A stretch of DNA of 64,000 nucleotides, from positions 2,331-66,330 of the forward strand of contig CAYTBG010000001.1 of NCBI GenBank assembly GCA_964435925.1, in the 5' to 3' direction. Shown here one piece after another: positions 17,815 through 58,292 of this stretch; position 1 is the stretch's first letter, and each line of letters begins with the position of its first letter. Source of the stretch: an uncultured Eubacteriales bacterium (GTDB lineage Bacteria > Acidobacteriota > Aminicenantia > Aminicenantales > Aminicenantaceae). The notes beneath the pieces were generated by a model. That model saw nothing but the letters and a program-made list of their open reading frames with translations, searched no databases and was not told the DNA's origin. The translations under genes and the position numbers were made by a program.

Positions 17815-18096
17815 ATTTAGGCCAAATATTTATGCTGTTAATAGAAAAAATAAAAATGGGGACTGTCTCCGTTTTCGAAAAGAGAAAAGTGGCAGGATTT
17901 GTAATAAAAAAAGAACGCTTCACAAAATGGACCTCTCCCCTTTTTTGCTCTTTTTATTGTCCCCTTATAAAAAAAAAGGCCTGTCCCCTTTTTTGAAAAG
18001 ATTCTGAGTTTTTATAAAATTTTTGCCTCTATAACTAAAAATTGCCTAAAAAGATGGGAAAAGTGGCAGGATTTGTGCCGAAATAACATAATTTTC

Positions 18097-18203: not shown

Positions 18204-18611
18204 ATGAGAATCAACATCTCCAGAAAAAAAATCAAAGATCCCTTTGTGACCAAGGTGGAAGAACTAAGCGGCCAGAATCTTCTTGCCTGTTATCAATGCG
18301 GCAAGTGCTCTGCGGGCTGTCCTGCTATCTCTGAAATGGACATCCTTCCCAATCAAATAATCCGTTATGCCCAGCTTGGCATGAAGGATGAGCTTTTGAA
18401 GTCAAAGTCCATCTGGATTTGCGCTTCCTGCTTTACCTGCAACGCTCGCTGTCCTAAAGGAATAAACATTGCAGAAGTTATCGAAGCCTTAAGGCAAATA
18501 TTGCTGCGCAAAAGAGAAGATCACCTCAAGGTTGAAAAGCTTTCAGATGCAGAAAAGGCAGGTGTCCCTCCCATTGCCATCATAAGCAGCATGAGGAAAT
18601 TTACCTCATAA
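18204..18611 (+). CDS. hdrC: heterodisulfide reductase subunit C-like (2x[4Fe-4S])
   Basis: CYQCGKCSAGCP and CASCFTCNARCPKGI. The size (135 aa) and position next to hdrB fit. Confidence 0.8.
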   Translation: MRINISRKKIKDPFVTKVEELSGQNLLACYQCGKCSAGCPAISEMDILPNQIIRYAQLGMKDELLKSKSIWICASCFTCNARCPKGINIAEVIEALRQILLRKREDHLKVEKLSDAEKAGVPPIAIISSMRKFTS

Positions 18612-18664
18612 ATTTTGAATTATGATATATAATTTTTTTTATCAAAATAGCATAAGGAATCATA

Positions 18665-19543
18665 ATGAAAATAAGTTATTATCCTGGTTGCACTCTGAAA
18701 AACAATGCGAAAAATTTTGAAGACTCAGCCTTATGTTCCTTAAAACACCTCGAAGTAGAAGTTGAGGAACTTGAACGATGGAACTGCTGTGGAACTGTCT
18801 TCTCTTTGGCAACTGATGACTTGATTCATCACGTAGCTCCTATCCGAAACCTCATCCGAGTCAAGGAAGCCAACACAAACAAAGTAATGACTCTCTGCGC
18901 CATGTGTTTCAACACCTTGAAAAGAGCAAATGAAAGAGTAAGATCCGACCCGGAGAGCCTTGATAAGATAAATAAATTTATGTATCGCGAGGAAGTCAAA
19001 TACCAAGGAGACGTTAACGTCCTCCACCTCTTGGAGCTGCTGAGAGATGAGATAAAATTCGAAAACATCGCCAAAAAAGTCGTCAAGCCTTTGAAAAACC
19101 TGAAAATAGCTAATTACTATGGCTGTCTTTTAGTCCGTCCCAAAGAAATTGGTCTTGACGATGTTGAAAATCCGACTGTTTTAGAAAATCTCATGACTGC
19201 TCTGGGGGCAGACGCCATAGATTTTCCTTATAAGACTGAATGCTGTGCTTCTTACCAAACTGTCGATAAACCTGAAAACGTAGCTGATAGAACATACCAA
19301 ATCCTCACCTCGGCTCAATCACAGGGCGCTGAGCTTGTATCTTTGAGCTGTCCGCTCTGTGCTTTTAATCTTGACCACCGTCAGAAAGTAACTGTCCAGA
19401 AATATCCTGAGTTCAAAAATATGCCAATCCTTTATTTTACCCAGCTCATGGCTCTTGCCTTAGGTTGTCCTGAGAAAGATTTAAGGTTAGATCTCCATTA
19501 TATTGACCCGAAGCCCATTTTGAAAGAAAAAGGATTACTCTGA
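18665..19543 (+). CDS. hdrB: heterodisulfide reductase subunit B-like (two CCG domains)
   Basis: YPGCTL...WNCCGT and YYGCLL...ECCASY...CPLC, the duplicated Cx(n)CCGx(n)CxxC type pattern. Confidence 0.8.
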   Translation: MKISYYPGCTLKNNAKNFEDSALCSLKHLEVEVEELERWNCCGTVFSLATDDLIHHVAPIRNLIRVKEANTNKVMTLCAMCFNTLKRANERVRSDPESLDKINKFMYREEVKYQGDVNVLHLLELLRDEIKFENIAKKVVKPLKNLKIANYYGCLLVRPKEIGLDDVENPTVLENLMTALGADAIDFPYKTECCASYQTVDKPENVADRTYQILTSAQSQGAELVSLSCPLCAFNLDHRQKVTVQKYPEFKNMPILYFTQLMALALGCPEKDLRLDLHYIDPKPILKEKGLL

Positions 19544-19550
19544 GGAGCAA

Positions 19551-19826
19551 ATGGTTTATTTCGGCGATTTAAAAGAAAAAAAGGGCAAAATCCACATCGA
19601 CAAGGACAGATGCAAGGGATGTGGATTCTGTGTGGAGTACTGCCCAAAAGATGTGCTCGAGATGTCTGAAGAATTCAATTTAAAGGGCTATCATCCTCCC
19701 TATATCAAGAATGAGGATGAATGCTGTTATTGTCAGCTGTGCGAGACAATTTGTCCTGAGTTTGCCATATTTGTCACTCTTAAAAAAGAGGAGGAAGAAG
19801 GTGAAAAAGGTGAAAGCAGACCCTAA
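19551..19826 (+). CDS. korD: 2-oxoacid:ferredoxin oxidoreductase delta subunit (2x[4Fe-4S] ferredoxin)
   Basis: CKGCGFCVEYCP and CCYCQLCETICP. It lies directly upstream of the alpha, beta and gamma subunits. Substrate specificity cannot be read from the sequence. Confidence 0.75.
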   Translation: MVYFGDLKEKKGKIHIDKDRCKGCGFCVEYCPKDVLEMSEEFNLKGYHPPYIKNEDECCYCQLCETICPEFAIFVTLKKEEEEGEKGESRP

Positions 19827-20967
19827 AGGAGTTTTAACCGGAGCTCATTATATAGACGGGGATTTTTCTCTTGCTGAGGGAGCTCTGGCGGCTGGATGCC
19901 GTTTTTTTGCAGGTTACCCTATTACACCATCAACTGAAACAGCGGAAAGATTTTCTGAAAGAATTCCCACTGTGGGAGGAGTTTTTATCCAGATGGAAGA
20001 CGAGCTCGCATCCATGGCAGCTCTGATAGGAGCCTCCTGGGGAGGGAAGAAAGCCATGACCGTTACTTCTGGACCCGGTTTTTCGTTGATGATGGAGAAT
20101 ATAGGATTAGCCTGTATGATGGAAACTCCCCTTGTGATTGCCAATGTCCAAAGAGGAGGCCCTTCAACAGGACTTCCCACCTTAACTGGTCAGCAGGACA
20201 TGATGCAGGTAAGGTGGGGATCCCACGGGGATTATGAGATAATTGCCCTCGTCCCTGATTCTCCTCAGGAGTGTTTCGACCTCACTATAGAAGCTTTCAA
20301 TCTATCTGAACTATACAGGGTTCCCACCTTTGTCATGACCGACGAATGCGTGGGCCATATGACTGAGAAAGTTGTCATCCCGCCACCTGAAGAAATTGAA
20401 CTGGTCGAAAGAAAATGGTACACAGGTCCAAAGGATAAATATCTTCCTTACAAGCCTGACAAAGACATGATCCCTTTCATGGTCAAGGCAGGCGACGGCT
20501 ATCGTTTCCACTCAACCGGATTAACCCGGGACGAACGCGGCTACCCTGCTATCAACGCCGAATGGCAGGATGTCTGTGTTCGCCATCTGGTGGATAAAAT
20601 CAATATGAATGCCGACAAAATCATTAAACTTGAAGAAGATGAAACCGATACTGCAGAAATCATAGTCATCTCCTACGGAATCACCTCAAGAGTTACGACA
20701 AGAGCTGTCCAGCAGGCAAAAAAAGCAGGTATAAAAGTGGGATCGATAAGGCTTATTACTGTCTGGCCTTTCCCTGAGAAGCGAATAAAAGAGCTGGCGA
20801 AGAAAATAAAGGCATTCGTCGTTCCTGAGATAAATTATGGTCAAGTTGTCCTAGAAGTGGAACGGTGCGCTGAAGGCCAAGCTCCGGCCATCCGTGTTCC
20901 TCACTGCGGTGGATGGGTCCACGATCCAGATGATATTTTTAAAGCTATCAAGGAGGCTTCAAAATGA
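19801..20967 (+). CDS. korA: 2-oxoacid:ferredoxin oxidoreductase alpha subunit
   Basis: LAEGALAAGCRFFAGYPITPSTE is typical of the OFOR alpha N-terminus. GTG 19801 (or 19810) is preferred. The ORF-track start at 19711 lies inside korD. Confidence 0.85.
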   Translation: MKKVKADPKGVLTGAHYIDGDFSLAEGALAAGCRFFAGYPITPSTETAERFSERIPTVGGVFIQMEDELASMAALIGASWGGKKAMTVTSGPGFSLMMENIGLACMMETPLVIANVQRGGPSTGLPTLTGQQDMMQVRWGSHGDYEIIALVPDSPQECFDLTIEAFNLSELYRVPTFVMTDECVGHMTEKVVIPPPEEIELVERKWYTGPKDKYLPYKPDKDMIPFMVKAGDGYRFHSTGLTRDERGYPAINAEWQDVCVRHLVDKINMNADKIIKLEEDETDTAEIIVISYGITSRVTTRAVQQAKKAGIKVGSIRLITVWPFPEKRIKELAKKIKAFVVPEINYGQVVLEVERCAEGQAPAIRVPHCGGWVHDPDDIFKAIKEASK

Positions 20968-21836
20968 AAGAAGAAGGTCATCTCGAAGAAAAAAACCCTA
21001 TGGAAGGTTTATTGAGGATGGACAGAATCCCCCACATCTGGTGCCCTGGCTGTGGAATAGGAACTGTTGTCACTTCTTTCGCCGAGGCTCTAAGGAAAAG
21101 TGAAATCGACCTGGATAAGACCACCATTGTATCCGGAATAGGATGTACTGGAAGAGTAGCTGGCTACGTGAAGCTTGATTCTTTCCATACTACCCACGGC
21201 CGAGCTATCCCCTTTGCCACTGGATTAAAACTGGCAAATCCCGAGTTAAAAGTCATTGTCTTCAGCGGAGACGGAGACCTCGCAGGAATCGGGGGCAACC
21301 ACTTCATCCATGCCGCCAGGAGAAATATGGATCTCGTCGTTATCTGTGTCAATAACTTTAATTACGCCATGACAGGAGGTCAGGTAGCAGCCACAACCCC
21401 TATCATGGCTAATGCCTCCACCGCTCCTTACGGCAATTATGAATATCCTTTCAGCCTTCCTTATCTTGCTGAGGCCAGTGGTGCAACTTATGTTGCTCGC
21501 TGGACTGCTCTTCATCTGAGGAGGGTGACCAAATCGATCCAGGAAGCTTTCGGCAAGAGAGGCTTTTCTTTCATCGAAGTCATTACTCCCTGTGTAACTC
21601 TTTATGCTCGCAGAAACCGTCTCGGCGATGGATTGAACCTGCTGAAATATTATTACGAAAAATCTGAAATTCAGCATGGAGCGGATACCAGAACTCTTGA
21701 TATCAGTTACCAAGGGAAACTCATAGTCGGGAAGTTTGTTGATAAAGATAAGCCAACTTTTCTCGATTGCATGAATGAGCATCTCGGCAAAGTTTTGGGC
21801 GATAAATACGAGCCTTACGGAGGAAACCATGACTGA
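20964..21836 (+). CDS. korB: 2-oxoacid:ferredoxin oxidoreductase beta subunit (TPP-binding)
   Basis: WCPGCGIG...GIGCTGR...FSGDGDLAGIGGNHFIHAARRN (TPP motif GDG...N). There is a 4-nt overlap with korA. Confidence 0.85.
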   Translation: MKEEGHLEEKNPMEGLLRMDRIPHIWCPGCGIGTVVTSFAEALRKSEIDLDKTTIVSGIGCTGRVAGYVKLDSFHTTHGRAIPFATGLKLANPELKVIVFSGDGDLAGIGGNHFIHAARRNMDLVVICVNNFNYAMTGGQVAATTPIMANASTAPYGNYEYPFSLPYLAEASGATYVARWTALHLRRVTKSIQEAFGKRGFSFIEVITPCVTLYARRNRLGDGLNLLKYYYEKSEIQHGADTRTLDISYQGKLIVGKFVDKDKPTFLDCMNEHLGKVLGDKYEPYGGNHD

Positions 21837-22392
21837 GATCAGGTTTTCTGGTTTTGGCGGTCAGGGAATCATTCGCTGCGGCCTTATTGCTGGAAAGGCC
21901 CTTTCTCTTTTTGACAATAAGCAGGCGACAATGACCCAGAGTTTCGGTCCTGAAGCCAGGGGAAGTGCCTGCAGTTCTCAACTCGTTGTCTCTGACGACC
22001 GAGTCCTGTATCCTTATATCTCCTCTCCGGAAATTCTTGTCTCCATGTCCCAGGAAGCCTATGACAAGTACGAGCCAGAATTGCAGGAAGATGGACTTCT
22101 TCTCATAGACAAGGATTTAGTCAAGGTAACGCCCCCTCGAGGAAAAATTAAAAGCTATTCTGTTCCTTCGACAAGGTTTGCCGAAGAATTAGGGAATCGT
22201 ATTATTGCCAACCTGGTTATGCTGGGATTTTTCACGGCAATAACTCGTATCGTTTCTCCCGAAGCCATGAAAAAAGCACTCCCCGGCCTAGTCCCGGAAA
22301 GATTTCTTGAGCTTAACAAGAAAGCTTTTGACAAAGGTTATGAATACGGCAAGAAAATCATGACTGAAGAGAAAAAACCAAAAAAGAAATAA
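21829..22392 (+). CDS. korC: 2-oxoacid:ferredoxin oxidoreductase gamma subunit
   Basis: MTEIRFSGFGGQGI is the typical gamma N-terminus. ATG 21829 is preceded by ggagga. The ORF-track start at 21775 lies inside korB. Confidence 0.85.
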   Translation: MTEIRFSGFGGQGIIRCGLIAGKALSLFDNKQATMTQSFGPEARGSACSSQLVVSDDRVLYPYISSPEILVSMSQEAYDKYEPELQEDGLLLIDKDLVKVTPPRGKIKSYSVPSTRFAEELGNRIIANLVMLGFFTAITRIVSPEAMKKALPGLVPERFLELNKKAFDKGYEYGKKIMTEEKKPKKK

Positions 22393-22428
22393 ACATTAGA
22401 CTATGTCTAAAAGCTATATGATAAGAGG

Positions 22429-22512
22429 TCATTGCGAGGAACGAAGTGACGAAGCAATCTCATATTATAAACATGTTGAGATTGCCGCACTCCCTTCGGT
22501 CGCTCGCAATGA
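22429..22512. repeat. 84-bp imperfect palindromic element (tcattgcgag...aatctca / tgagatt...ctcgcaatga)
   Basis: The outer arms tcattgcgag/ctcgcaatga and the inner arms aatctca/tgagatt are exact complements, and the middle pairs partially. It sits in the 183-nt korC-hdrA gap. The spurious ORF 22407..22664(-) reads through it (RLLRHFVPRND). Confidence 0.7.
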
Positions 22513-22575
22513 CAACAATAAGAGGAAAAAAATACAAATAAAAATGGGGCCTGGCCCCAATTTAAAGGTAAAAAA

Positions 22576-24522
22576 ATGAAACGAACAGGCGTCTTTGTTT
22601 GCCACTGCGGCATAAATATAGCCGGAACAGTAGATGTCAAAAAGGTTGCCAAAGAGCTTTCCAAGCACAGGGGAGTCGTCCACTCTGAAGATTATATTTA
22701 CATGTGTTCTGATCCGGGTCAGAACCTGATTATTGAAGCCATAAAGGAAAAAAAGCTGGACAGCGTGGTTGTAGCCTGTTGTTCTCCAACTCTCCATGAA
22801 ACAACCTTCCGCAATGCTTCCAAATCTGCTAATCTTAACCCTTTTCAATGTGAAATTGCCAATATCCGAGAGCAATGCAGCTGGGTTCATAAAGATATGG
22901 AAAAGGCGACAGAAAAAGCGATGAAAATTACTAAAAGTGCTATACAAAGAGTTCGAAGGAATGAATCTCTGGAGCCGATAAGCGTCCCTGTCACCAGGAA
23001 AGCTCTGGTTATTGGCGGCGGAATAGCAGGCATCCAATCTGCGTTAGACTTAGCCAACACTGGCTTTGAAGTCATTCTGGTAGAAAGGGAACCTTCCATC
23101 GGGGGCCATATGATTCAGCTCTCTGAAACCTTCCCTACCCTCGATTGTTCCCAGTGTATCCTGACTCCGAAAATGGTGGAAGTCTCCAAACACCCCAAGA
23201 TTAAACTCATGACCTACAGCGAAATTCAGGATATCTCCGGGTATGTGGGAAATTTCAAGGTTAAAATTCTCAAAAAGCCCACCTATGTTGACCCAGACAA
23301 ATGTACTCTCTGTGATGAATGCACCAAAGTATGTCCCGTGGTCGTGCCCAACGAATTTGATCTCGGTTTAACCGAACGGCGAGCCATCTATATTCCTTTC
23401 CCTCAAGCAATTCCAGCTACCTTTACTCTGGACATAAAAAATTGCCCCGGCCTTCTGCCGATTGCCTGCGGCAAGTGCGCAGATGTTTGCGAACCAGATG
23501 CAATTGATTATGATATGAAACCTGAAATCGTCGAGGAAGAAGTAGGAGCCATCATCGTTTCCACTGGATACGATCTCTATGATAAGAAATTGTTGGGTGA
23601 ATACGGGTATGGAAAATACCCGGATGTCCTGGATGGGCTCCAATTTGAAAGATTGCTCTCTGCCTCTGGACCGACAATGGGAAAAATTCTCAGACCGTCA
23701 GATCACAAAGAACCCAAGGAAGTTGTCTTTATCCAATGCGCTGGTTCCCGCGATCCTGAACTTCACTGCGCTTACTGCTCAAAAATATGCTGCATGTACA
23801 CGGCCAAACATGCCATGCTCTACAAACATCACGTCCATGATGGCCAGGCCTATATTTTTTATATCGATATCAGGTCAGGGGGAAAAGACTACGAGGAATT
23901 CGTCCAGAGAGCCATAGAAGAGGATGGAGTCCTTTACCTCAGAGGAAAGGTTTCGAAAATATTTGAAGATAACGGCAAAATCAAGGTCTGGGGCGTGGAT
24001 ACCCTGGCCGGAAAAGACATCGAGATCGATGCCGATATGGTCGTCCTGGCTACGGCCACGCGGCCCTCTAAGGGAGCAGATGAACTGGCCAAGAAACTCA
24101 AAATCGCCCTGGACAAGGACGGCTTTCTCGCCGAAGCCCATCCAAAACTCAGACCTGTAGAGAGTGTTACATCTGGAATGTTCCTGGCAGGAGCAGCCCA
24201 GGCACCTAAAGACATTCCTGAAGCTGTGGCTCAAGCTAGCGGGGCGGCGGCTAAGGCTATCTCCATCTTATCCCAGGACAGACTTTACCATGCTCCCACA
24301 GTGGCCAAGGTTAACGTCAATCTCTGCACAGGCTGCGGAATGTGTGTTGATGTCTGTCCTTATGATGCTCTCTCTCTCAAAGATGGCAAAGCCGAGGTGA
24401 ATGAAGTCCTCTGCGAAGGGTGTGGTACTTGCTCGGCTACGTGCTTGAGAGCAGCCATCCACGTCAAAAATATGACTCCTTTGCAGGTAAACGAAATGAT
24501 AAAAGCATCACTCGGAGGCTAA
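22576..24522 (+). CDS. hdrA: heterodisulfide reductase subunit A-like (FAD, multiple Fe-S clusters)
   Basis: MKRTGVFVCHCGINIAG N-terminus, FAD fold ALVIGGGIAGIQSALDLA, ferredoxin motifs CTLCDECTKVCP and CGKCADVCEP, and C-terminal CTGCGMCVDVCP and CEGCGTCSATC. Confidence 0.9.
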   Translation: MKRTGVFVCHCGINIAGTVDVKKVAKELSKHRGVVHSEDYIYMCSDPGQNLIIEAIKEKKLDSVVVACCSPTLHETTFRNASKSANLNPFQCEIANIREQCSWVHKDMEKATEKAMKITKSAIQRVRRNESLEPISVPVTRKALVIGGGIAGIQSALDLANTGFEVILVEREPSIGGHMIQLSETFPTLDCSQCILTPKMVEVSKHPKIKLMTYSEIQDISGYVGNFKVKILKKPTYVDPDKCTLCDECTKVCPVVVPNEFDLGLTERRAIYIPFPQAIPATFTLDIKNCPGLLPIACGKCADVCEPDAIDYDMKPEIVEEEVGAIIVSTGYDLYDKKLLGEYGYGKYPDVLDGLQFERLLSASGPTMGKILRPSDHKEPKEVVFIQCAGSRDPELHCAYCSKICCMYTAKHAMLYKHHVHDGQAYIFYIDIRSGGKDYEEFVQRAIEEDGVLYLRGKVSKIFEDNGKIKVWGVDTLAGKDIEIDADMVVLATATRPSKGADELAKKLKIALDKDGFLAEAHPKLRPVESVTSGMFLAGAAQAPKDIPEAVAQASGAAAKAISILSQDRLYHAPTVAKVNVNLCTGCGMCVDVCPYDALSLKDGKAEVNEVLCEGCGTCSATCLRAAIHVKNMTPLQVNEMIKASLGG

Positions 24523-24525
24523 AAA

Positions 24526-24948
24526 GTGGCAGAAGAATTTGAACCAAAAATAGTTGCTTTTCTCTGTAAGTGGTGTTCCTCAGCCGGAAGCGACCTGGCT
24601 GGAGTCTCCCGCATGGAGTATCCACCCAATGTTATTCCCATCACTGTCATGTGTTCGGGGAGCGTGTCTCCTCTCTACATATTCTCTGCCTTTAACAAAG
24701 GAGCAGACGGAGTGCTCGTTTCAGGTTGTCATCCAGGCGACTGCCACTACATCAAAGGTAACTTCTATGCCCGGCGCAGAATTGCCCTGGTTAAGAAGCT
24801 TTTGGAGTATGTCGGCCTTGAGCCCCAGCGCTTCCAGATGTCCTGGATTTCGGCAGCAGAAGGAGTAAAATATACTCAAGTTATAAAAGATTTTGTCCAA
24901 GAACTAAAGCCACTCGGTCCTCAAAAAAAACTGAGGAGAACTCAATAA
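24526..24948 (+). CDS. mvhD: MvhD/FlxD-like hydrogenase iron-sulfur delta subunit
   Basis: KIVAFLCKWCSSAG...VMCSGSVSP...VSGCHPGDCHY is the MvhD family pattern. It starts 3 nt after hdrA. Confidence 0.85.
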   Translation: MAEEFEPKIVAFLCKWCSSAGSDLAGVSRMEYPPNVIPITVMCSGSVSPLYIFSAFNKGADGVLVSGCHPGDCHYIKGNFYARRRIALVKKLLEYVGLEPQRFQMSWISAAEGVKYTQVIKDFVQELKPLGPQKKLRRTQ

Positions 24949-25979
24949 TGGTAAACGTGGAAGAGCTCAAGAAAGAAGCCAGCCAAATCTTAAAAGAAAG
25001 AAAAGTTAAATACATCATTGGCTTCCAAAGAGGCTCAAACGGCCTCCTTCCTGTCCCGGCTTTCATAAAAAATCCTGAAGATGTTGATAAATTAATTTGG
25101 GATCCAACCTGCGTCCATAACCTCACCCGCTTCCTGCACGATGAAAAAAGAAGAAAAGCTAAGGAGAAGGAACCTGATGAAAGGCCAGTAGGAATCGTCG
25201 TAAAAGGATGTGACAGCCGAGCTATCAATGTCTTGCTTCAAGAAGAATTCATCAAAAGAGATGATGTTTATATATTAGGAGTCTCCTGCGAAAATACCGG
25301 GGTTTTGGATAAGAAGAAACTTGCCAAAAAATTGAAAGGAAAAAAAGCTAAAAAAGTTGGGTTTGGCGCCAAGGACGATTTTGTTATCACGACAGAAGAT
25401 GGAAAGATTAAAATTGCGGCTCAAGAAGTGCTTTCTGAGAGATGTCTTGAATGCAAAGCCAATTTCCCGGTGATATATGATGTCTTAATAGGAGAAAAAA
25501 CCAAGCGCAATTTAGAAAATCCTTTTAAATCTCTGGAGAAAATTGAATCTTTGCCTTCAGAGGAAAGGTGGAAATTCTGGAAGGAACAAATTGACAAATG
25601 CATTAGATGTTATGCCTGCCGGTCTGTATGCCCCATGTGCTATTGTGATGAATGTGTGGCCGACACCATAAATTTTGTTATAACACCAGAAACCACAGCC
25701 GAAGAGAAGGCCCAAAAAATAAAGTGGCTGGAAAAATCGCCTGTTACTTCAGAAAATTTTGTCTATCACTTCGTCAGAGCTATCCATCTCGCAGGACGCT
25801 GCATTGACTGCGGAGAGTGCGAGAGAGTTTGTCCTCTGGATATTCCCCTTCGTCTCTTGAATAAGAAATTGGAAAAAGAAGCCAAAGAGCTTTTTGACTA
25901 TGATGCCGGCTTTGATCCTGACAAACCTTCTCTTGTCTCCAGTTTTAAGGATGAAGACCCGGAAGACTTTATAAGGTAA
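24948..25979 (+). CDS. HydB/AsrA-like iron-sulfur protein (FlxC-like)
   Basis: VVKGCDSRAI motif plus Cys clusters CIRCYACRSVCPMCYC and CIDCGECERVCP. The start overlaps the mvhD stop (TAATG). Confidence 0.6.
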   Translation: MVNVEELKKEASQILKERKVKYIIGFQRGSNGLLPVPAFIKNPEDVDKLIWDPTCVHNLTRFLHDEKRRKAKEKEPDERPVGIVVKGCDSRAINVLLQEEFIKRDDVYILGVSCENTGVLDKKKLAKKLKGKKAKKVGFGAKDDFVITTEDGKIKIAAQEVLSERCLECKANFPVIYDVLIGEKTKRNLENPFKSLEKIESLPSEERWKFWKEQIDKCIRCYACRSVCPMCYCDECVADTINFVITPETTAEEKAQKIKWLEKSPVTSENFVYHFVRAIHLAGRCIDCGECERVCPLDIPLRLLNKKLEKEAKELFDYDAGFDPDKPSLVSSFKDEDPEDFIR

Positions 25980-25983
25980 GTAA

Positions 25984-27024
25984 ATGGAAAAAGTGCTGTC
26001 AAAAAAAGCCTTCCCCCAATGGGTGAAGAAGCTTGAATCTTACACAATATATGCTCCGCAAAAAGATGGCGATCTCTGGAACTTCGAGGTTATCAAGAAT
26101 TCTGAAATCATAGACCTGGATTATCTCACTACTGTCCTCTCTCCTAAAAAAATCATCTTTCCCCAAAGAGAAGTCTTCCTCGAGTTCAGCACTTCAGATG
26201 AAAATCGCCTTGAGGTGAAAGAGGTTCTCCCAGATGAGAAGCTAACTGTTATTTTTGGCGTGAGACCATGCGATGCGAAGGCTCTAACCTTAACAGATAA
26301 GGTTTTTGGCGGTGACATTGAAGACCCATACTATTGGAAAAGAAGAAACTCAACAACCCTTGTCGGACTTACCTGTAACACACCTCCTTCTGCGAATTGC
26401 TTCTGTCTCTCTGTCGGTGGCTCGCCCCATTCCAAAGAAGGCCTGGATATCTTGATGACGGATTTAGGAGATAAATATTATGTACAATCCTTCACAAAAA
26501 AAGGAGACGAACTCCTGAATTTAGCCAGGGCCCTCTTTAAGAACCCAACAGCCAAAGATAAGAAGGATTTAGCCCAAATTAAGGCGGAATCTGAGAAGAA
26601 AATTAAAAGGCAAATCAAAGAGCTGGAAAAAATTCCTCCCAAGCTCAAAGAAATGTTTGACTCATCCTTTTGGGACGAAGAGTCTTTAAGCTGCATACGC
26701 TGCGGCATCTGCACTTATCTCTGCCCAACCTGTCACTGCTTTGATATAAGCGATGAAGTTACTTCTTCTTCCCCGGTCAAAGGAAAGAGGGTGAGGACTT
26801 GGGATAACTGTCAGTTTCCTGATTTTACTATGCATTCTTCAGGGCACAACCCAAGGCCCGATAAGGCCTCACGATTGAGACAGAGAATCCTTCATAAGTT
26901 TCAGTATTTTGTCGAACGATATCAAAATTACCAATGCATAGGCTGTGGAAGGTGCATCTCGAAATGCCCTGTTGGGATAGATATCATAGAAGTTCTCGAA
27001 AAGGCGAGAGATTATGGATCATAA
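25984..27024 (+). CDS. HydB/AsrA-like iron-sulfur protein (FlxB-like)
   Basis: GVRPCDAKAL motif, CIRCGICTYLCPTCHC and CIGCGRCISKCP, as in the sulfhydrogenase beta / anaerobic sulfite reductase A family. Confidence 0.65.
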   Translation: MEKVLSKKAFPQWVKKLESYTIYAPQKDGDLWNFEVIKNSEIIDLDYLTTVLSPKKIIFPQREVFLEFSTSDENRLEVKEVLPDEKLTVIFGVRPCDAKALTLTDKVFGGDIEDPYYWKRRNSTTLVGLTCNTPPSANCFCLSVGGSPHSKEGLDILMTDLGDKYYVQSFTKKGDELLNLARALFKNPTAKDKKDLAQIKAESEKKIKRQIKELEKIPPKLKEMFDSSFWDEESLSCIRCGICTYLCPTCHCFDISDEVTSSSPVKGKRVRTWDNCQFPDFTMHSSGHNPRPDKASRLRQRILHKFQYFVERYQNYQCIGCGRCISKCPVGIDIIEVLEKARDYGS

Positions 27025-27838
27025 TACCTATATTCCACAACTGGCAAAAATAATCGAAATCAAAGAAGAAGTGGGTGGAGAAAGGCCTATCAAGACTTTC
27101 AGGACTCAGTTTCTAAACATGAATGATTTCTCCTTCCGTTCTGGACAGTGCGCTATGCTTTCCGTGTTTGGCAGGGGAGAATCAATATTTGCTATCTCCT
27201 CTTCCCCTCTTATGAAGGATTACCTTCAATTCAACATATTGAAGATGGGAAGGGTCACCTCATCCCTTCACGATATGCAAGTCGGAGATATCATCGGAAT
27301 AAGAGGGCCTTATGGCAATGGTTTTCCCCTCGAAGATTGGAAAGGAAAAAACCTTATCTTTATCGGCGGTGGCATCGGCTTGGCTCCTATCTGGTCTATC
27401 CTCAACACGGCCCTAAGCAGAAAAGAATATTACGGAGATCTCATGCTGATTTACGGAGCGAGGACATCCAAAGACCTTGTTTTCAAAGAAGAACTCAAAG
27501 AGCTCAGGAAGAAAATGCCCGTCCATCTTTCAATAGATGTCGAGGAGCCGGATTGGAAGGAGTTTGTCGGATTCGTTCCTCAGAATGTTACAGATAAAAA
27601 ACCTTCCCCAAAAAATGCAATAACAGTTACCTGCGGTCCCCCGATCATGATTAAATTCGTCATCAAAGCCCTCGAGGAACTCGGCTTTAAGGACGAACAG
27701 ATTTACACGACTGTCGAGAACAAAATGAAATGTGGTATCGGGAAATGCGGAAGATGCAACATTGGCTTTCACTATGTTTGTAAAGATGGTCCTGTTTATT
27801 CATGGGCCGAACTTAAAAAATTACCACAAGAATATTAA
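27014..27838 (+). CDS. FAD/NAD(P)-binding oxidoreductase with a C-terminal [2Fe-2S] (HydG/AsrB/PyrK-like; FlxA-like)
   Basis: FRSGQCAML...ISS (FAD-binding barrel), LIFIGGGIGLAPI (NAD(P) fold), and a C-terminal CGIGKCGRCN...CKDGPV cluster motif. Confidence 0.75.
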   Translation: MDHNTYIPQLAKIIEIKEEVGGERPIKTFRTQFLNMNDFSFRSGQCAMLSVFGRGESIFAISSSPLMKDYLQFNILKMGRVTSSLHDMQVGDIIGIRGPYGNGFPLEDWKGKNLIFIGGGIGLAPIWSILNTALSRKEYYGDLMLIYGARTSKDLVFKEELKELRKKMPVHLSIDVEEPDWKEFVGFVPQNVTDKKPSPKNAITVTCGPPIMIKFVIKALEELGFKDEQIYTTVENKMKCGIGKCGRCNIGFHYVCKDGPVYSWAELKKLPQEY

Positions 27839-28006
27839 CAAGAACCCAAAGATGAAAAAAAAGGTTCAAAAATTCGGAAATTTAAGGCTAATTAATCCAA
27901 AAAATTGGCACGAAAGCTCGAATAGTTGTCTTTTTGAATCACAGTTTTTCCCTTTACATCGTAATTTTGGACATGGGTTTTTGATTCTTTCCCTGAGGAG
28001 GAAACT

Positions 28007-28762
28007 TTGAAAGAGAAAATAAGCATTATGGATAGAATTGCAGAGTCAAACAAATCTGTAACTACAGGAATTGATGAGAAGGATATTAAGGATTGGGTTA
28101 CAATTTATATAATGGGAAAGGCTTATAAGGTTCCAGCTGCGCTAACAATTATGCAGTCCATGGAGTTTGCTGGGTATAGGTTTGTCAGGTCTGCAGGATG
28201 CAGGGCAGGATTCTGTGGCGCCTGTGCTACAGTTTACAGAAAAGCTGGCGACTATAAACTACAGACTGCCATGGCCTGCCAAACAAGAGTTGAAGAAGGA
28301 ATGTACTTGGTTCAGATACCTTTTGCACCCGCAGAAAAAGCCACTTACGACATTAACAAAGAAAAATACGATATCGGTGTATTATTCAAACACTACCCAG
28401 AGCTTGCAAGGTGTGTAGCCTGCAATACATGTACAAAATCATGTCCTCAGGAACTCGAGGTCATGGATTATATCCAAGATGCAATCAAAGGAGATTTTAA
28501 AGCTGTTGCTGAGGAATCATTTGATTGTATTCAGTGCGGGCTTTGTGCCATCAGATGTCCTGCAGAACTTGTCCAGTATCATATTGCTCAGCTAGCCAGA
28601 AGAATGTATGGCCGATACGGACGCCCAGAGCCAGAACATCTAAAAAACAGGTTGAAAGAGATAGAAAAAGGTAAATATAAAGAAGATTGGAACAAACTTA
28701 TTAAGGCTACGATCAAAGATCTTGAAAAATTTTATGCTGATAGAGAAAGGGAGCCAGATTAA
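28007..28762 (+). CDS. succinate dehydrogenase/fumarate reductase iron-sulfur subunit-like protein
   Basis: [2Fe-2S]-type CRAGFCGACA...C followed by CVACNTCTKSCP and CIQCGLCAIRCP. TTG 28007 lies 6 nt after gaggagg; ATG 28028 is an alternative start. Confidence 0.7.
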   Translation: MKEKISIMDRIAESNKSVTTGIDEKDIKDWVTIYIMGKAYKVPAALTIMQSMEFAGYRFVRSAGCRAGFCGACATVYRKAGDYKLQTAMACQTRVEEGMYLVQIPFAPAEKATYDINKEKYDIGVLFKHYPELARCVACNTCTKSCPQELEVMDYIQDAIKGDFKAVAEESFDCIQCGLCAIRCPAELVQYHIAQLARRMYGRYGRPEPEHLKNRLKEIEKGKYKEDWNKLIKATIKDLEKFYADREREPD

Positions 28763-28777
28763 TAAAGGAGGAGAAAA

Positions 28778-30436
28778 ATGTCTGAAATAAAATATATCAG
28801 AGGTTATCCAGAATATATGTGTGAGCTTATAAAGATAGTGAATAAGACAAGGATGAAGAGAAAAGATTATGATCCTCCTGCCATGAGCAAAGAAGAAAGG
28901 AAAGAAGTGCTCAACCTGCATCCAGATTATGCTCACGGTGGTAAAAGAAAGATATCCATAGCGCAGAATAAAGGTGATATAGGACCTAATGAAGTCGTGG
29001 ATCTCCTTGAGGCATATCCTCTCATAGAAGAAGGAGAAATTGATCTTTCTCAAATAGACTACGACGTAGATATTCTAATAATAGGCGGTGGCCTAGCAGG
29101 AACAACAGCAGCAATCTGGGCAAATAATCAAGGCGTTCCACCTGAAAAAATTCTTCTTACAAATAAACTTAGGCATGGTGATTCCAATTCGATGATGGCT
29201 GAAGGAGGAACTCAGGCTGCTGATCGTCAAAATGATTCGCCGCTTATACATTTCTTGGATGCCATGGGGGGAGGACATTTTGCTAATAAGCCAGATGTTG
29301 TTAAAGGACTGGTTGAAGATGCTCCCCTAATCATGCATTGGCTTTTAGAATTAGGAGCAATGATTGATAGAGAGGAGAATGGAGATTTTACAGAGAAATG
29401 GGGTGGCGGCACTTGCAGAAAAAGAATGCATGCCTGCAGAGATTATACAGGCCTTGAAGAATTGAGAGTCATAAGAGATGAGTTCAGAAACAGGAAAATT
29501 TTGTGCTTAGAATATTATCCCGCAATTGAGCTTCTCACAGATGGCGAAGGAAGGGCTACAGGAGCCGTTCTCTGGAATTGTGAAACAGGCGACTATAAAA
29601 TTGTAAGAGCTAAAACCACTATTCTTGCGACAGGCGGCTTTGGAAGGTTACATATTAGAGGTTTCCCTACCACAAATCATTACGGCGCTACATGTGATGG
29701 AGTGGTCCTTGCCTACCGTACTGGAGCTAAACTGAGGGATGTCGACACAGTCCAGTATCACCCAACAGGAGCTGCCTATCCCCAACAGATAATCGGTCTC
29801 CTCCTTACAGAAAAACTCAGGAGCATGGGTGCTCAACCGGTAAATAAGGACGGAGAAGCCTTTGTCTTTCCTCTTGAACCGAGAGATGTTGAAGCCTCTG
29901 CATTTATAAGAGAATGTTATGTGAGAGAAAAAGGAGTTACAACTCCGACAGGCATGAGAGGTATCTGGCTTGATACTCCTCTCATTGAAATTAAAAATGG
30001 TGAAGGTACCATAGATAATGCCTTCCCAGGAATGAGAAGGATGTTCAATAGATTTGATATTGACATGCGAAAGGATCCGGTTCTAGTCTTTCCTACGCTC
30101 CATTACCAAAATGGAGGAGTAGAAACAGATCCCGAAGGAAAAACAAACGTGCAAGGACTGTTTGTCGCAGGCGAAGTATCGGGTGGAGTCCACGGTAAAA
30201 ATAGACTTATGGGAAATTCTACCCTTGACTGCATAGTCTACGGAAGGAGATCTGGAATCTATGCTGCAAAATATGCTAAAACTGTCAAAGGAAGAGGGAA
30301 GCTTTCATTGGAGCACATGAAAAAATATGTAAATATGCTTAAAAAAGCAGGAATAAAACCCGAGAGAAGAGCTCCAATACTTTTGCCGGAATATAGAGGT
30401 AAAGCAGTATTGGCAAGGATGATTGATATATTTTAA
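28778..30436 (+). CDS. FAD-dependent fumarate reductase/succinate dehydrogenase flavoprotein-like subunit, with an N-terminal extension of about 95 aa
   Basis: DILIIGGGLAGTTAA (FAD fold), VQYHPTG (the family HPT motif), TEKLRSMGA (Arg retained), and GLFVAGEVSGGVHGKNRLMGNSTLDCIVYGRRSG. RBS is aggagg. No membrane-anchor gene is adjacent. Confidence 0.75.
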   Translation: MSEIKYIRGYPEYMCELIKIVNKTRMKRKDYDPPAMSKEERKEVLNLHPDYAHGGKRKISIAQNKGDIGPNEVVDLLEAYPLIEEGEIDLSQIDYDVDILIIGGGLAGTTAAIWANNQGVPPEKILLTNKLRHGDSNSMMAEGGTQAADRQNDSPLIHFLDAMGGGHFANKPDVVKGLVEDAPLIMHWLLELGAMIDREENGDFTEKWGGGTCRKRMHACRDYTGLEELRVIRDEFRNRKILCLEYYPAIELLTDGEGRATGAVLWNCETGDYKIVRAKTTILATGGFGRLHIRGFPTTNHYGATCDGVVLAYRTGAKLRDVDTVQYHPTGAAYPQQIIGLLLTEKLRSMGAQPVNKDGEAFVFPLEPRDVEASAFIRECYVREKGVTTPTGMRGIWLDTPLIEIKNGEGTIDNAFPGMRRMFNRFDIDMRKDPVLVFPTLHYQNGGVETDPEGKTNVQGLFVAGEVSGGVHGKNRLMGNSTLDCIVYGRRSGIYAAKYAKTVKGRGKLSLEHMKKYVNMLKKAGIKPERRAPILLPEYRGKAVLARMIDIF

Positions 30437-30655: not shown

Positions 30656-31189
30656 TTAACTACCGCTTCTAGAACCAATTCTTGGATACCGTATCCAGTT
30701 GCCATTCCACATAATCAAATCTTTATCGAAATCAGAAATAGAGAAGACCTGAAAGGTTCCAGCTCCAAACGAACCCACATCGAAGACAAAACTTTCTTGC
30801 GTTTTATCACGTCCAAAAGAAGCAACCAAAAAATCATCGCCTAAGGAGTCAGAAATTCCGTATTCCGCGGCAGCAGAGCCACACCACACTCGGTAGCCAG
30901 ACCCCCACTTGTCATTAAGGGGGAGGGTTTTGACATAAAAAGGAGACATCGCATTATAGAAAGCCGAACTGCCATCATAAATACCTTCTTGGGCAGGAGT
31001 GCTTCCATTATCAGTAACATAGTCTGTAATAGCTACGGCTATGGTTCTTATATCTCTCATCGTGCTTTTCTGTTTGCTTTTATGGATAGCTGTTAGGGCA
31101 TTAGGAACAAACAGAGCAGCCAGAAGTCCAATAATCGCAACTGAGATAAGTAGCTCAATGAGTGTAAACCCTCTTATCGTTTTTTTCAT
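30656..31189 (-). CDS. prepilin-type N-terminal cleavage/methylation domain protein (type IV pilin / pseudopilin)
   Basis: MKKTIRGFTLIELLISVAIIGLLAALFVP is the class III signal (G/FTLIE). The Met at 31189 is preferred over the ORF-track start at 31258. Confidence 0.8.
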   Translation of the reverse strand: MKKTIRGFTLIELLISVAIIGLLAALFVPNALTAIHKSKQKSTMRDIRTIAVAITDYVTDNGSTPAQEGIYDGSSAFYNAMSPFYVKTLPLNDKWGSGYRVWCGSAAAEYGISDSLGDDFLVASFGRDKTQESFVFDVGSFGAGTFQVFSISDFDKDLIMWNGNWIRYPRIGSRSGS

Positions 31190-31464
31190 GCAAGCTTCCT
31201 TTCCTCTCCTCACTTTTTTAGTCGATAAGAGCACTTGGAAATTGAATGCAACATTCACATTTTCTTTTGACTTTTAGAAGGAATTTGATATATTAAATGC
31301 GTTTTTCAAGGAAAGGGGGCGTTTATTTTAACTTTGACGCAGATAAAATAAATTTTTAGAAGCATGTTTGGAAAAGATAAAAAAATTAAGGCCAAACTTT
31401 TTCCTAAATCGCTGCTTCGGACGAAAATCCTTGGCTAAAGCACGACAAGGGAAGGATATCATTC

Positions 31465-31869
31465 ATGGAAGATAAGGAAGCCGCAAAAAGAACATGCATC
31501 CGGTTTGCAATTCCCGGGACTACAATCAGTTATGAGCTCAAGAATTACGCAGAGGAATTTTCCCCTCTTGTCGATATCAGCCGCGGGGGAGCTAAATTTC
31601 TGGGTAAATATCCTCTCGAGATAAATGCAGATATAACCCTGAAAATATCCGTTCCAGGTGAAAGGATTCCCTTAATCCTCCACGGGAAGGTCCGGTGGAT
31701 ATCTATCATTGAGGGAAAAGATCAATACCAGGTCGGAGTTCAATTTAATCCATATGGAGAAAAGGAAAGACAAAATTACCCTGGAAATCTGGTGAAAATC
31801 ATTTCACTCGAGCAAAAATTTGCCCCTACAGATAAAGCCAAAGTCGGGAAATATGAAATTGACAGTTGA
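31465..31869 (+). CDS. PilZ domain protein (paralog 1)
   Basis: KRTCIRF...DISRGGAKF matches the PilZ RxxxR / DxSxxG c-di-GMP binding pattern. 134 aa. Confidence 0.75.
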   Translation: MEDKEAAKRTCIRFAIPGTTISYELKNYAEEFSPLVDISRGGAKFLGKYPLEINADITLKISVPGERIPLILHGKVRWISIIEGKDQYQVGVQFNPYGEKERQNYPGNLVKIISLEQKFAPTDKAKVGKYEIDS

Positions 31870-32028
31870 TAAATATCCAATAAATCAGCATAATATCTAA
31901 AAAAGAAATTTACTAATAGGATTTAAATATTAAAACTCTTGTTGCTTTCTTAGAATAGGATGACGATCTCGAACGACACTGTCAAAAGATCAAATGAAAT
32001 GCTCTAGGACAAACAAAGGAGACTTTAG

Positions 32029-32430
32029 ATGGAAGAAGAGGGAATAGAAAAAAGGACATGCATCCGGTTCCAAATTCCTGGAGCTACTGTCAGCTATCAG
32101 TTCAAGGAACATGTAGAGGAATTTTCCCCTCTTGTTGATATAAGCCGCGGGGGACTCAAGTTTATAGGAAAGAAACCTCCGGAGATGAACACTGAAGTAA
32201 CCCTGAATATTTCCATTCCCGGTGAAAGAATTCCTTTTACTATGCAGGGAAAAGTGCAGTGGATATCTTATGTTGAGGCCAAAGATCAATACTTTATCGG
32301 GGTCCAGTTTAATCCCTACGGAGAAAAACAAGGGGAAAATTACCCCGGAAACATGGTAAAAATCATCGCCCTTGAGCAAAAATACGCAATTAAAGATAAA
32401 GCTAAAACCGGGAAATTTGAAATTAACTAG
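32029..32430 (+). CDS. PilZ domain protein (paralog 2)
   Basis: KRTCIRF...DISRGGLKF. Collinear with, and highly similar to, the 31465 gene over its full length. Confidence 0.75.
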   Translation: MEEEGIEKRTCIRFQIPGATVSYQFKEHVEEFSPLVDISRGGLKFIGKKPPEMNTEVTLNISIPGERIPFTMQGKVQWISYVEAKDQYFIGVQFNPYGEKQGENYPGNMVKIIALEQKYAIKDKAKTGKFEIN

Positions 32431-32470
32431 CTAGAAGAGATGTAGCCTGGGGACGTTCCCTTTTTTCTTT

Positions 32471-35391: not shown

Positions 35392-35392
35392 T

Positions 35393-36859: not shown

Positions 36860-36861
36860 TT

Positions 36862-38214: not shown

Positions 38215-38232
38215 AAGCTAAATATTCCCTTT

Positions 38233-38619: not shown

Positions 38620-38630
38620 CTTGCGCCTCC

Positions 38631-38964: not shown

Positions 38965-38973
38965 TCGAATGGC

Positions 38974-45512: not shown

Positions 45513-45526
45513 TCAACCAGGCCCCT

Positions 45527-46771: not shown

Positions 46772-46781
46772 TCTTCCCTCT

Positions 46782-48411: not shown

Positions 48412-48413
48412 GT

Positions 48414-58279: not shown

Positions 58280-58292
58280 TAAGGGGAGAATC

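Follow-up and report, generated by a model that had tools for sequence, protein, structure and literature searches.

A co-directional redox cluster

The window analyzed here, a stretch of 64,000 nucleotides (nt) of contig CAYTBG010000001.1 from an Aminicenantes-type bacterium, contains thirteen plus-strand genes between 18204 and 30436 (hdrC, hdrB, korDABC, hdrA, mvhD, flxCBA, frdB' and frdA'). They combine Hdr, MvhD and Flx proteins with a 2-oxoacid:ferredoxin oxidoreductase (OFOR) and end in a gene pair for an Fe-S protein and a flavoprotein, which we call FrdB'A'. The genes are listed with the lengths of their products in amino acids (aa) and the domains matched; FAD stands for flavin adenine dinucleotide and TPP for thiamine pyrophosphate.

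18204..18611, + strand: hdrC, 135 aa; HdrC-like, Fer4_8/Fer4_17
18665..19543, + strand: hdrB, 292 aa; two Pfam CCG domains
19551..19826, + strand: korD, 91 aa; ferredoxin-like delta subunit, two Fer4 domains
19801..20967, + strand: korA; alpha subunit, POR_N and PFOR_II
20964..21836, + strand: korB, 290 aa; TPP-binding beta subunit, TPP_enzyme_C
21829..22392, + strand: korC; gamma subunit, Pfam POR; start ATG 21829 after GGAGGA
22576..24522, + strand: hdrA, 648 aa; full-length flavo-iron-sulfur protein
24526..24948, + strand: mvhD/flxD, 140 aa; MvhD-type [2Fe-2S] adaptor, Pfam FlpD 175.5 bits
24948..25979, + strand: flxC-like, 343 aa; Fe-S protein with 16 Cys, Fer4 families only
25984..27024, + strand: flxB-like, 346 aa; HydB/ShyB/AsrA-type Fe-S protein, Fer4_22 117 bits
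27014..27838, + strand: flxA-like, 274 aa; NAD(P)H/FAD-binding protein with a [2Fe-2S] site, NAD_binding_1 and DHODB_Fe-S_bind
28007..28762, + strand: frdB', 251 aa; Fe-S subunit, ATG at codon 8, Fer2_4 and Fer4_9
28778..30436, + strand: frdA', 552 aa; soluble fumarate-reductase-like flavoprotein, FAD_binding_2 over residues 98-481 only

The coordinates of the open reading frames (ORFs), together with Pfam and NCBIfam matches, bear out the layout given in a preliminary description of this DNA: thirteen genes in one direction, a four-subunit OFOR between hdrB and hdrA, and only three larger gaps, of 53 nt (hdrC-hdrB), 183 nt (korC-hdrA) and 168 nt (flxA-frdB'). Profile searches upheld the assignment of every gene. 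The remaining junctions are overlaps or spacers of at most 15 nt, taking GTG 19801 as the probable start of korA, whose mechanical ORF runs from 19711, and ATG 21829 as that of korC. The short spacers lie between hdrB and korD (7 nt), hdrA and mvhD (3 nt), flxC and flxB (4 nt) and frdB' and frdA' (15 nt), and the overlaps are korD/korA, korA/korB (4 nt), korB/korC (8 nt), mvhD/flxC (1 nt) and flxB/flxA (11 nt).

The Hdr and Flx products retain the cofactor motifs of an electron-transfer assembly. HdrA matches the HdrA2 model over positions 1-640 (845 bits) and, through residues 3-642, the Methanothermococcus HdrA structure 5ODC (5ODC_A; 731 bits); it has 30 Cys, including three CX2CX2CX3C motifs, and is the predicted site of the bifurcating FAD. 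HdrB carries two complete CCG motifs (C9...C41C42...C78xxC81 and C154...C193C194...C229xxC232), predicted to form two non-cubane [4Fe-4S] sites, and scores nearly equally on the HdrB model TIGR03288 (175.8 bits) and the type-E SdhE model (173.5 bits), with 126-145 bits against solved methanogen HdrB structures. HdrC, at 87.6 bits under the TIGR03290 cut-off, has two CX2CX2CX3C motifs from which two [4Fe-4S] clusters are predicted, and MvhD, with 5 Cys, aligns with the C-terminal MvhD part of the HdrA2 model. The FlxC-like protein contains two CX2CX2CX3C motifs, and its gene co-occurs with flxB/flxA in related loci; FlxB scores 207.6 bits on ShyB, 193 on HydB and 157.8 on AsrA, each under the cut-off, and FlxA gives HydG/AsrB-type matches of 190-241 bits and is the predicted entry point of NADH.

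KorDABC comprises all four OFOR subunits (alpha, beta, gamma and delta), with TPP and Fe-S motifs present. KorA scores 554 bits on PRK08659, a generic 2-oxoacid model with a cut-off of 411, and its nearest entries in the Protein Data Bank (PDB) are 1yd7 and 8ys5, the latter a 2-oxoglutarate synthase. The top NCBIfam model for KorB is the beta subunit of 2-oxoglutarate:ferredoxin oxidoreductase (OGOR; 227 bits against a cut-off of 364), those for KorD are OGOR_delta (69.9 bits) and OorD (58.5 bits), both under their cut-offs, and KorC reaches 198.7 bits on PRK08537, also under its cut-off. Taken with the PDB neighbors and the adjacency of sucCD in related loci, the best-matching models suggest that the Kor substrate is 2-oxoglutarate. 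A doubled OFOR set, korA-korB-korA-korB-korC, in some cases with korD, replaces the window's single four-subunit set beside frdA' in L012, L018, L030, L034, L048-L052 and L059 (L numbers denote related loci); presumably it resembles the multi-subunit 'For'-type OGORs.

The FrdB'A' family and its gene neighborhoods

All 12 Cys of FrdB' fall within one plant-type [2Fe-2S] motif (CX4CX2CX17C) and two CX2CX2CX3CP motifs. Neither Pfam and NCBIfam searches nor the Cys map reveal a CCG domain in this protein, and the TfrB and SdhB models give weak local matches. FrdA' begins with a conserved N-terminal extension of about 95 aa and has no match to Succ_DH_flav_C, the C-terminal domain of Sdh. The dicarboxylate-site residues H232, T244, E245, R248, R287, H355 and R390 of Escherichia coli FrdA correspond to H328, T344, E345, R348, R369, H442 and R476 of FrdA', and these are invariant across 33 family members. 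His44 of E. coli FrdA, which binds FAD covalently, is replaced by Asn137, likewise invariant in the family, as is expected of a soluble low-potential enzyme. A three-way alignment of FrdA', FrdA and NadB, in which the NadB sequence was checked against 1CHU, places Trp208 at the position of NadB Glu121, where other members of the family carry H, A or T.

These features set the pair, called FrdAB-like in the preliminary description, apart from canonical FrdAB, an identity rejected on curated scores, absent domains and diagnostic residues. FrdA' falls under every curated NCBIfam cut-off, reaching 285 of 718 bits for TfrA (aligned over model positions 6-410 of 546 only), 258 of 567 for Sdh/Frd and 243 of 453 for NadB. 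Unlike in canonical complex II, FrdB' has Fer2_4 rather than Fer2_3 and two four-Cys motifs, and the cluster contains no anchor gene. On these scores and motifs, FrdB'A' is a separate, highly conserved family. Kinship with L-aspartate oxidase (NadB) or AprA had been named as a finding that would refute the fumarate reductase proposal. NadB is rejected, since Glu121 is absent, an Fe-S partner gene always adjoins frdA' and the 243 bits compare with cut-offs of 453-639, and the fumarate-site residues are kept; AprA was rejected on scores, as it does not appear among the 25 top-scoring NCBIfam families listed of 44. Foldseek searches with a model of FrdA' return the Sdh/Frd flavoprotein fold only and nothing informative for the N-terminal extension.

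The family is broad and unusually well conserved, with identities of at least 70% from one phylum to another. More than 120 database proteins (Aminicenantes, WOR-3 and others) are 77-97% identical to FrdA', and scanning GTDB species genomes with two family-specific peptide patterns yielded at least 596 relatives, of which the best 80, 69-98% identical, provide the loci analyzed here. These 80 are spread over Aminicenantes, WOR-3, Stahlbacteria, TA06, Aerophobetes, Sumerlaeota, Cloacimonadota, Fermentibacteria, Bipolaricaulota, Caldisericota, Spirochaetota, Phycisphaerae, KSB1, Atribacterota and Bathyarchaeia. At L004, a flavoprotein 98% identical to FrdA' accompanies a gene order identical to that of the window. 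In a library clustered at 50% identity, the 552-aa family collapses to a single representative, P0121 (58% identical), and a homology search seeded with it gave archaeal members only, its close relatives being Bathyarchaeota and Asgard proteins from metagenome-assembled genomes (MAGs). More distant relatives (40-46%) retain the N-terminal extension, and canonical Sdh, Frd and NadB do not appear before 33-38%. FrdB' and FrdA' are still paired in distant relatives, including one annotated Prochlorococcus, and the two are naturally fused in one polypeptide, P0123 (L086, 5250-7433), whose N-terminal 221 aa are 32% identical to FrdB' (E = 1e-42) and whose FrdA' part is 46% identical.

Neighborhoods were compared by running tblastn with the 13 proteins of the window, together with mvhAG and sucCD, on all loci, and the association of these genes holds well beyond this genome. 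frdB' lies immediately 5' of frdA' in 72/72 loci. The contiguous order hdrC-hdrB-frdB'-frdA' occurs in 28 of the 80, with 11-105 nt between hdrB and frdB'; nine loci show the window-type order hdrB-korDABC-hdrA and three show frdB'-frdA'-hdrC-hdrB. Where at least 4 kilobases (kb) of sequence flank the pair on each side (46 loci), hdrA is present in 34, hdrB in 31, mvhD in 28, kor in about 20, flx in about 10, mvhAG in 7 and sucCD in 5. Identity to the window proteins tracks FrdA' identity, with Spearman coefficients of 0.72 for HdrB, 0.89 for KorA and 0.94 for KorB.

Different electron-input modules accompany an unchanged Hdr-Frd' core. Flx serves as the donor module in the window and in L003, L065 and L067, and an Mvh [NiFe] hydrogenase takes this place in L001, L035, L042, L073, L075 and L079. 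A NuoF-like donor gene directly follows frdA' in a gammaproteobacterial subfamily whose flavoprotein is 43% identical to FrdA'. This variant, from marine gammaproteobacterial/Thiotrichales MAGs (L084, L085 9366-12891), consists of frdB' (212 aa), frdA' (545 aa) and the NuoF-like gene (Complex1_51K and NADH_4Fe-4S) with no Hdr, and could be a simple NADH:fumarate reductase that shares this terminal module. In L014 and L019, the cluster is that of the window minus flxCBA; the genes after frdA' in L014, considered as an alternative NAD(P)H module, are actually a glycerate-kinase-like gene and a HAD hydrolase gene.

An unbiased test, in which all ORFs of the loci were clustered and recurrent clusters annotated with Pfam, returned hdrA, hdrB, hdrC, mvhD, kor and flx as the top neighbors. 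The next same-strand metabolic neighbors are class I fumarate hydratase (alpha subunit in 11 loci, beta in 10) and malic enzyme (8 loci), and sucCD is recovered as well; the recurrence of fumarase, malic enzyme and sucCD therefore identifies enzymes that make fumarate and consume succinate as the metabolic partners. Synteny in many phyla and the unbiased clustering rule out chance co-location. Malic enzyme begins 4-26 nt 3' of frdA' in L027, L067 and L074, and the order in L001 is frdA'-x-SIR2-sucC-sucD-korAB... In several phyla (L027, L036, L067, L074, L075 and others), malic enzyme and class I fumarase alpha/beta genes come right after frdA' on the same strand. As annotated, the string hdrC-hdrB-frdB'-frdA'-maeA-fumA-fumB is a pyruvate-to-succinate reductive branch laid out gene by gene.

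Other companions appear where hdr is missing. In L024-L026, L029, L033, L058, L063 and L070, a minus-strand gene for a GltB-like flavin mononucleotide protein follows the pair, with a Fer2_4/Fer4 protein farther 3' and a large NuoF-like protein in L026 and L063; in L026 and L070, the genes immediately beside the pair are unrelated. An overlapping set of loci (L038, L058, L063, L064, L066, L070 and L081) has a divergent glutamate dehydrogenase gene. The GltB-like, NuoF-like and glutamate dehydrogenase proteins could be alternative redox partners tied to 2-oxoglutarate and glutamate.

These data also bear on the possibility that FrdA' acts on a substrate other than fumarate, be it an enoate, another dicarboxylate or an amino acid, as L-aspartate oxidase does, and that its position beside kor and hdr stems from another pathway. 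The scores below all curated cut-offs would allow this, as would the unique conserved N-terminal extension, the absent C-terminal domain and membership of a superfamily that takes in urocanate and other reductases. We nevertheless regard it as very improbable: all fumarate-site residues are invariant in the family and NadB E121 is absent, the Fe-S partner is constant, unlike in NadB, and the recurrent metabolic neighbors are fumarase, malic enzyme, sucCD and OGOR-type kor.

Proposed electron path and its alternatives

The genes present, their cofactor motifs and catalytic residues, the conserved synteny and the exchange of donor modules together point to a soluble, flavin-based bifurcating NADH:fumarate/ferredoxin oxidoreductase that cooperates with KorDABC, and we put the probability of this reading at roughly 60%. 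We posit that NADH enters at FlxA (FAD, 2Fe-2S) and that electrons would reach the bifurcating FAD of HdrA by way of FlxB/FlxC and MvhD. From there, the low-potential electron would exit through the ferredoxin domains of HdrA to ferredoxin, and the high-potential electron would travel over HdrC, with HdrB, the CCG protein, as partner or intermediate, to the three FrdB' clusters and the noncovalent FAD of FrdA', where fumarate would be reduced to succinate. Fumarate would thus stand in for the disulfide of coenzymes M and B (CoM-S-S-CoB) of methanogen Mvh-Hdr or for the DsrC of Desulfovibrio Flx-Hdr, with the net reaction 2 NADH + fumarate + Fd(ox) -> 2 NAD+ + succinate + Fd(red, 2 e-), where Fd is ferredoxin. 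The preliminary description had already proposed an NADH-dependent bifurcating fumarate reductase tied to the OFOR. That proposal gains from the conserved context, the fumarate-site residues and the fumarase, malic enzyme and sucCD neighbors; the physical complex, bifurcation, fumarate as substrate and the direction of operation are what we infer from sequence.

KorDABC, probably acting on 2-oxoglutarate, would use or supply the ferredoxin in a 1:1 ratio with succinate. The unit could then run fumarate -> succinate -> succinyl-CoA -> 2-oxoglutarate on NADH alone, the one two-electron-reduced ferredoxin per fumarate being what KorDABC would need to carboxylate the derived succinyl-CoA; in reverse, oxidation of 2-oxoglutarate could be coupled to the difficult oxidation of succinate. 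The relevant potentials are +33 mV for fumarate/succinate and -320 mV for NAD (PMC5861303), reduction of fumarate by NADH yields about -58 kJ/mol, and OGOR carboxylation costs +2 to +10 kJ/mol with ferredoxin at -480 to -440 mV (PMC13147460).

How the high-potential electron reaches FrdA' separates this electron path from a second one, in which Flx-HdrABC reduces a disulfide, DsrC-like or of low molecular weight, and FrdB'A' acts as a separate thiol:fumarate reductase that re-oxidizes the thiol, as methanogen Tfr does. HdrB retains both complete CCG motifs, the disulfide-reducing site of methanogen HdrB, TfrA is the top curated model for FrdA', the pair occurs without hdr nearby in 12 of the 46 well-flanked loci, and both Rubin-Blum et al. 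and the work on Pseudoclostridium thermosuccinogenes offer a thiol intermediate as an option. FrdB', however, has no CCG domain, all of its Cys being taken up by one 2Fe-2S and two 4Fe-4S motifs, and FrdB'A' alone therefore lacks the thiol-oxidizing site of TfrB. The cluster encodes one CCG protein only, HdrB, and a search with a DsrC query found no DsrC-like gene in the window or the searched loci, in line with the earlier statement that the cluster lacks DsrC and dsr genes. Successive parts of the methanogen TfrB model match FrdB' (model positions 16-82), HdrC (127-233) and HdrB (262-471), a Rosetta-stone pattern, and the commonest gene order sets hdrB just before frdB', as if the modules that methanogen TfrB fuses formed one electron wire. 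Because FrdB' has no CCG domain, the CCG protein is single, no DsrC-like gene turned up in the window or the searched loci and TfrB provides the Rosetta-stone match, direct wiring is favored, and a thiol shuttle appears distinctly unlikely.

The arrangement and the hypothesis have both been published, and the window adds another instance to a concept already in print. In tubeworm symbionts (Candidatus Endoriftia persephone and the Escarpia laminata symbiont), Thioflavicoccus mobilis and an aquifer MAG, Rubin-Blum et al. 2019 (PMC6315080 and its Text S1 Note 3) found korABCD and 'tfrAB' intermingled with flxABCD-hdrABC, and they hypothesized that NADH electrons are bifurcated to fumarate reductase and to ferredoxin/OGOR. 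Mitchell et al. 2024 (PMC11636981) placed the four-subunit OGOR between HdrA and HdrBC and found the Endoriftia cluster co-expressed, and a 2026 survey repeats the model of a bifurcating fumarate reductase (PMC13147460). A 2019 preprint by Koendjbiharie and van Kranenburg, as cited in PMC7282089, proposes a novel, potentially bifurcating fumarate reductase near Flx-Hdr and fumarase in P. thermosuccinogenes. The statement that a hard-wired Hdr/Flx-Frd-Kor unit had not been characterized thus stands for the biochemistry; it does not for the arrangement and the hypothesis (PMC6315080, PMC11636981 and, for a similar proposal, PMC7282089). Recent papers on WOR-3 and Cloacimonadota MAGs assign Mvh-Hdr to CoM-S-S-CoB reduction and leave the adjacent frdB'A' unmentioned.

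Like the Endoriftia, Escarpia and T. mobilis module, the window combines flxABCD, hdrABC, a two-gene 'tfrAB' and korABCD, here in the same orientation, and, likened by published description, has kor between hdrA and hdrBC as in Endoriftia and T. mobilis. There, the module sits among aclAB, acn, idh, mdh, pntAB and rnf in sulfur-oxidizing autotrophs, whereas in this Aminicenantes-type bacterium housekeeping, glycine-cleavage and restriction-modification genes flank it. The 'succinate operon' of P. thermosuccinogenes, as cited in PMC7282089, likewise sets Flx-Hdr beside a two-gene fumarate reductase with a proposed fumarate-ferredoxin link. It contains fumarate hydratase, as do 10-11 related loci, and the window itself has no fumarase; no kor genes are reported for that operon, unlike in the window.

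Characterized systems supply pieces of the proposed assembly. The window shares a full-length HdrA, an HdrB with two CCG domains, HdrC and MvhD with methanogen MvhADG-HdrABC (5ODC, 7BKB, 8RVU), the mechanistic template for bifurcation, and some relatives of the cluster have mvhA/mvhG instead of flx. The methanogen enzyme takes electrons from H2 and passes them to CoM-S-S-CoB at HdrB, whereas the donor here would be NADH via Flx, and an Fe-S/flavoprotein pair is added whose acceptor is presumably fumarate. FlxABCD-HdrABC of Desulfovibrio vulgaris (Ramos et al. 2015) consists of the seven protein types seen here and is proposed to bifurcate NADH electrons to ferredoxin and a high-potential acceptor; the acceptor named there is the DsrC disulfide and the genes lie with alcohol dehydrogenase (adh), and the window has neither DsrC nor adh. 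The contiguous flxABCD-hdrABC order is not found in the window: it is inverted and split by kor, as hdrC-hdrB-[korDABC]-hdrA-mvhD-flxC-flxB-flxA, with frdB'A' added.

Methanothermobacter TfrAB (Heim et al. 1998) resembles FrdB'A' in being soluble and in its noncanonical Fe-S content. TfrB is one polypeptide with 2Fe-2S, 4Fe-4S and C-terminal CCG modules, unlike the three separate proteins of the window, to which HdrA/MvhD/Flx are added. The Tfr donor is CoM-SH/CoB-SH; these bacteria show no sign of CoM/CoB, and the relatives are mostly bacterial. In type E complexes, SdhABE(F) or MfrABE, the CCG protein SdhE/MfrE partners an SdhB-like subunit in which a second 4Fe-4S cluster replaces 3Fe-4S. 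The match of the window's HdrB to the SdhE model and the two four-Cys motifs of FrdB' recall this design. Type E enzymes are, however, membrane-associated and quinone-linked and have a canonical SdhA, unlike the window, which has HdrA, HdrC, MvhD and Flx and a FrdA' without the covalent-FAD His and the C-terminal domain. The five-subunit NADH fumarate reductase of Hydrogenobacter thermophilus, a soluble enzyme of the reductive tricarboxylic acid (TCA) cycle (Miura et al. 2008, as summarized in PMC13147460), is reported to be non-bifurcating. By description, the proposed reductase of the window would resemble it in being soluble, multi-subunit and NADH-dependent. The Hydrogenobacter genes are said to be dispersed in the genome.

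The 1:1 stoichiometry would be compatible with forward and reverse operation, between which a gene cluster cannot tell. In reverse, the same complex would be a confurcating succinate dehydrogenase: reduced ferredoxin and succinate would jointly reduce 2 NAD+ via Hdr-Flx, Kor would oxidize 2-oxoglutarate, for example from glutamate fermentation, providing one reduced ferredoxin per succinate, and a quinone-free anaerobe could pass the succinate-to-fumarate step of an oxidative TCA segment. Flavin-based bifurcating enzymes are in general reversible, the relatives are mainly fermentative candidate phyla, and glutamate dehydrogenase recurs beside the pair in Hdr-less loci; one published MAG reconstruction has 'TfrA' running from succinate to fumarate (PMC9723716). 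Against this stands our calculation that the mean donor potential, (-480 + 33)/2 or about -224 mV, lies above that of NAD (-320 mV), so that the reverse reaction would be endergonic unless fumarate and NADH were very low. Variants with an Mvh hydrogenase would need to make H2 from succinate, which is harder still, and malic enzyme and fumarase after frdA' suit both directions. We consider reverse operation unlikely.

Several points weigh against a bifurcating fumarate reductase coupled to Kor. Among the well-flanked loci, the 12 mentioned above have no hdr gene within 10 kb, and FrdB'A' can therefore be encoded, and perhaps can work, away from Hdr; in the window itself, frdB'A' lies 168 nt from flxA and 9 kb from hdrCB. 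In Endoriftia, the differential expression of tfrAB was unlike that of the rest of the cluster (PMC11636981). FrdA', besides falling below every curated cut-off, is just 28-34% identical to characterized fumarate reductases and lacks their C-terminal domain, and its AlphaFold2 model is of low confidence, with a mean predicted local distance difference test score of 65.6. KorA alone passes a cut-off, and that of a generic model, the OGOR/Oor-type models that top the lists for the delta, beta and gamma subunits staying below theirs. Finally, the literature yielded no biochemical characterization of any family member.

A more speculative extension of the bifurcating fumarate reductase, to which we assign a low probability, would dock KorDABC on the Hdr-Flx-Frd' assembly, so that HdrA hands its electron directly to KorD without free ferredoxin in a 13-subunit machine, and would make FrdB'A' the high-potential acceptor module of 'orphan' Hdr/Mvh and Hdr/Flx complexes. 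If so, NADH oxidation, made exergonic by fumarate reduction, would directly drive the carboxylation of succinyl-CoA, or the reverse, and the acceptor role of FrdB'A' would cover the Hdr/Mvh and Hdr/Flx complexes of hundreds of uncultivated bacterial and archaeal species.

Surroundings of the cluster and implications

The redox cluster is a bounded unit because the flanking genes are unrelated: DUF362, radical-SAM and spermidine-synthase-like genes lie on its 5' side, and its 3' side has a pilin-like gene on the minus strand along with PilZ, glyQS, glycine cleavage system and type I restriction-modification genes. The window contains no ATP-citrate lyase, DsrC or dsr genes, and its flanks no adh. 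Nothing in the window demonstrates a reductive TCA cycle, to a branch of which the preliminary description had tied the cluster, there being no ATP-citrate lyase and the flanks being housekeeping. The order of the downstream genes PilZ, glyS, glyQ, gcvP subunits, gcvH and gcvT (30656-40068) is apparently shared by L009 and L014 (FrdA' identity 86% and 79%), as judged by matching ORF lengths and PilZ Pfam matches, and the redox cluster therefore seems to occupy a stable chromosomal position in this lineage. Two further features belong to the cluster region.

17993..18020, + strand: candidate sigma-70-type promoter, TTGAAA-16-TAAAAT, upstream of hdrC; a pattern match from a consensus scan
22428..22515, + strand: long imperfect hairpin (inverted repeat) in the 183-nt korC-hdrA spacer

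A pattern scan found no convincing plus-strand terminator inside the cluster, and an Rfam scan of the window gave no match. Folded as RNA, the hairpin reaches -40 kcal/mol with a z-score of -6.9. It occurs a single time in the window, and its 5' arm, searched exactly as a slightly degenerate 30-nt pattern, did not turn up in 85 related loci; the hairpin is possibly an inserted repeat element or a structure for mRNA processing or stability.

Elsewhere in the window, an ORF of more than 1,928 codons (about 58200-64000, plus strand) with a signal-peptide-like hydrophobic start runs off the end and probably encodes a giant secreted or surface protein. The restriction-modification system (hsdR, hsdS, hsdM; 42462-49901, minus strand) holds two extra genes between hsdS and hsdM, a 348-aa ORF without a Pfam match and a DUF6036 nucleotidyltransferase-like gene. 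A release-factor ORF (2442-3305, plus strand) starts at position 60 of the PCRF model, with about 230 nt upstream without an assigned gene, as is expected of prfB with a programmed +1 frameshift.

The cluster brings an arrangement known from Gammaproteobacteria into an Aminicenantes-type genome, a lineage possibly close to the donor of that transfer. FrdB'A' is found in at least 596 matches among GTDB species genomes, with Bathyarchaeia and Asgard relatives among its members, and this breadth, together with the modularity of its neighborhoods, makes the enzyme class readily testable and, if proven, important. If the bifurcating fumarate reductase is real, fumarate would join heterodisulfide, DsrC, crotonyl-CoA and others as a high-potential acceptor in flavin-based bifurcation, and the substrate that the widespread HdrABC/MvhD proteins of non-methanogenic, non-sulfate-reducing anaerobes reduce would be revealed. 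The two hardest steps of the reductive TCA branch could then run on NADH alone, and quinone-free fermenters would conserve the energy of fumarate reduction as reduced ferredoxin for Rnf, hydrogenase or CO2 fixation.

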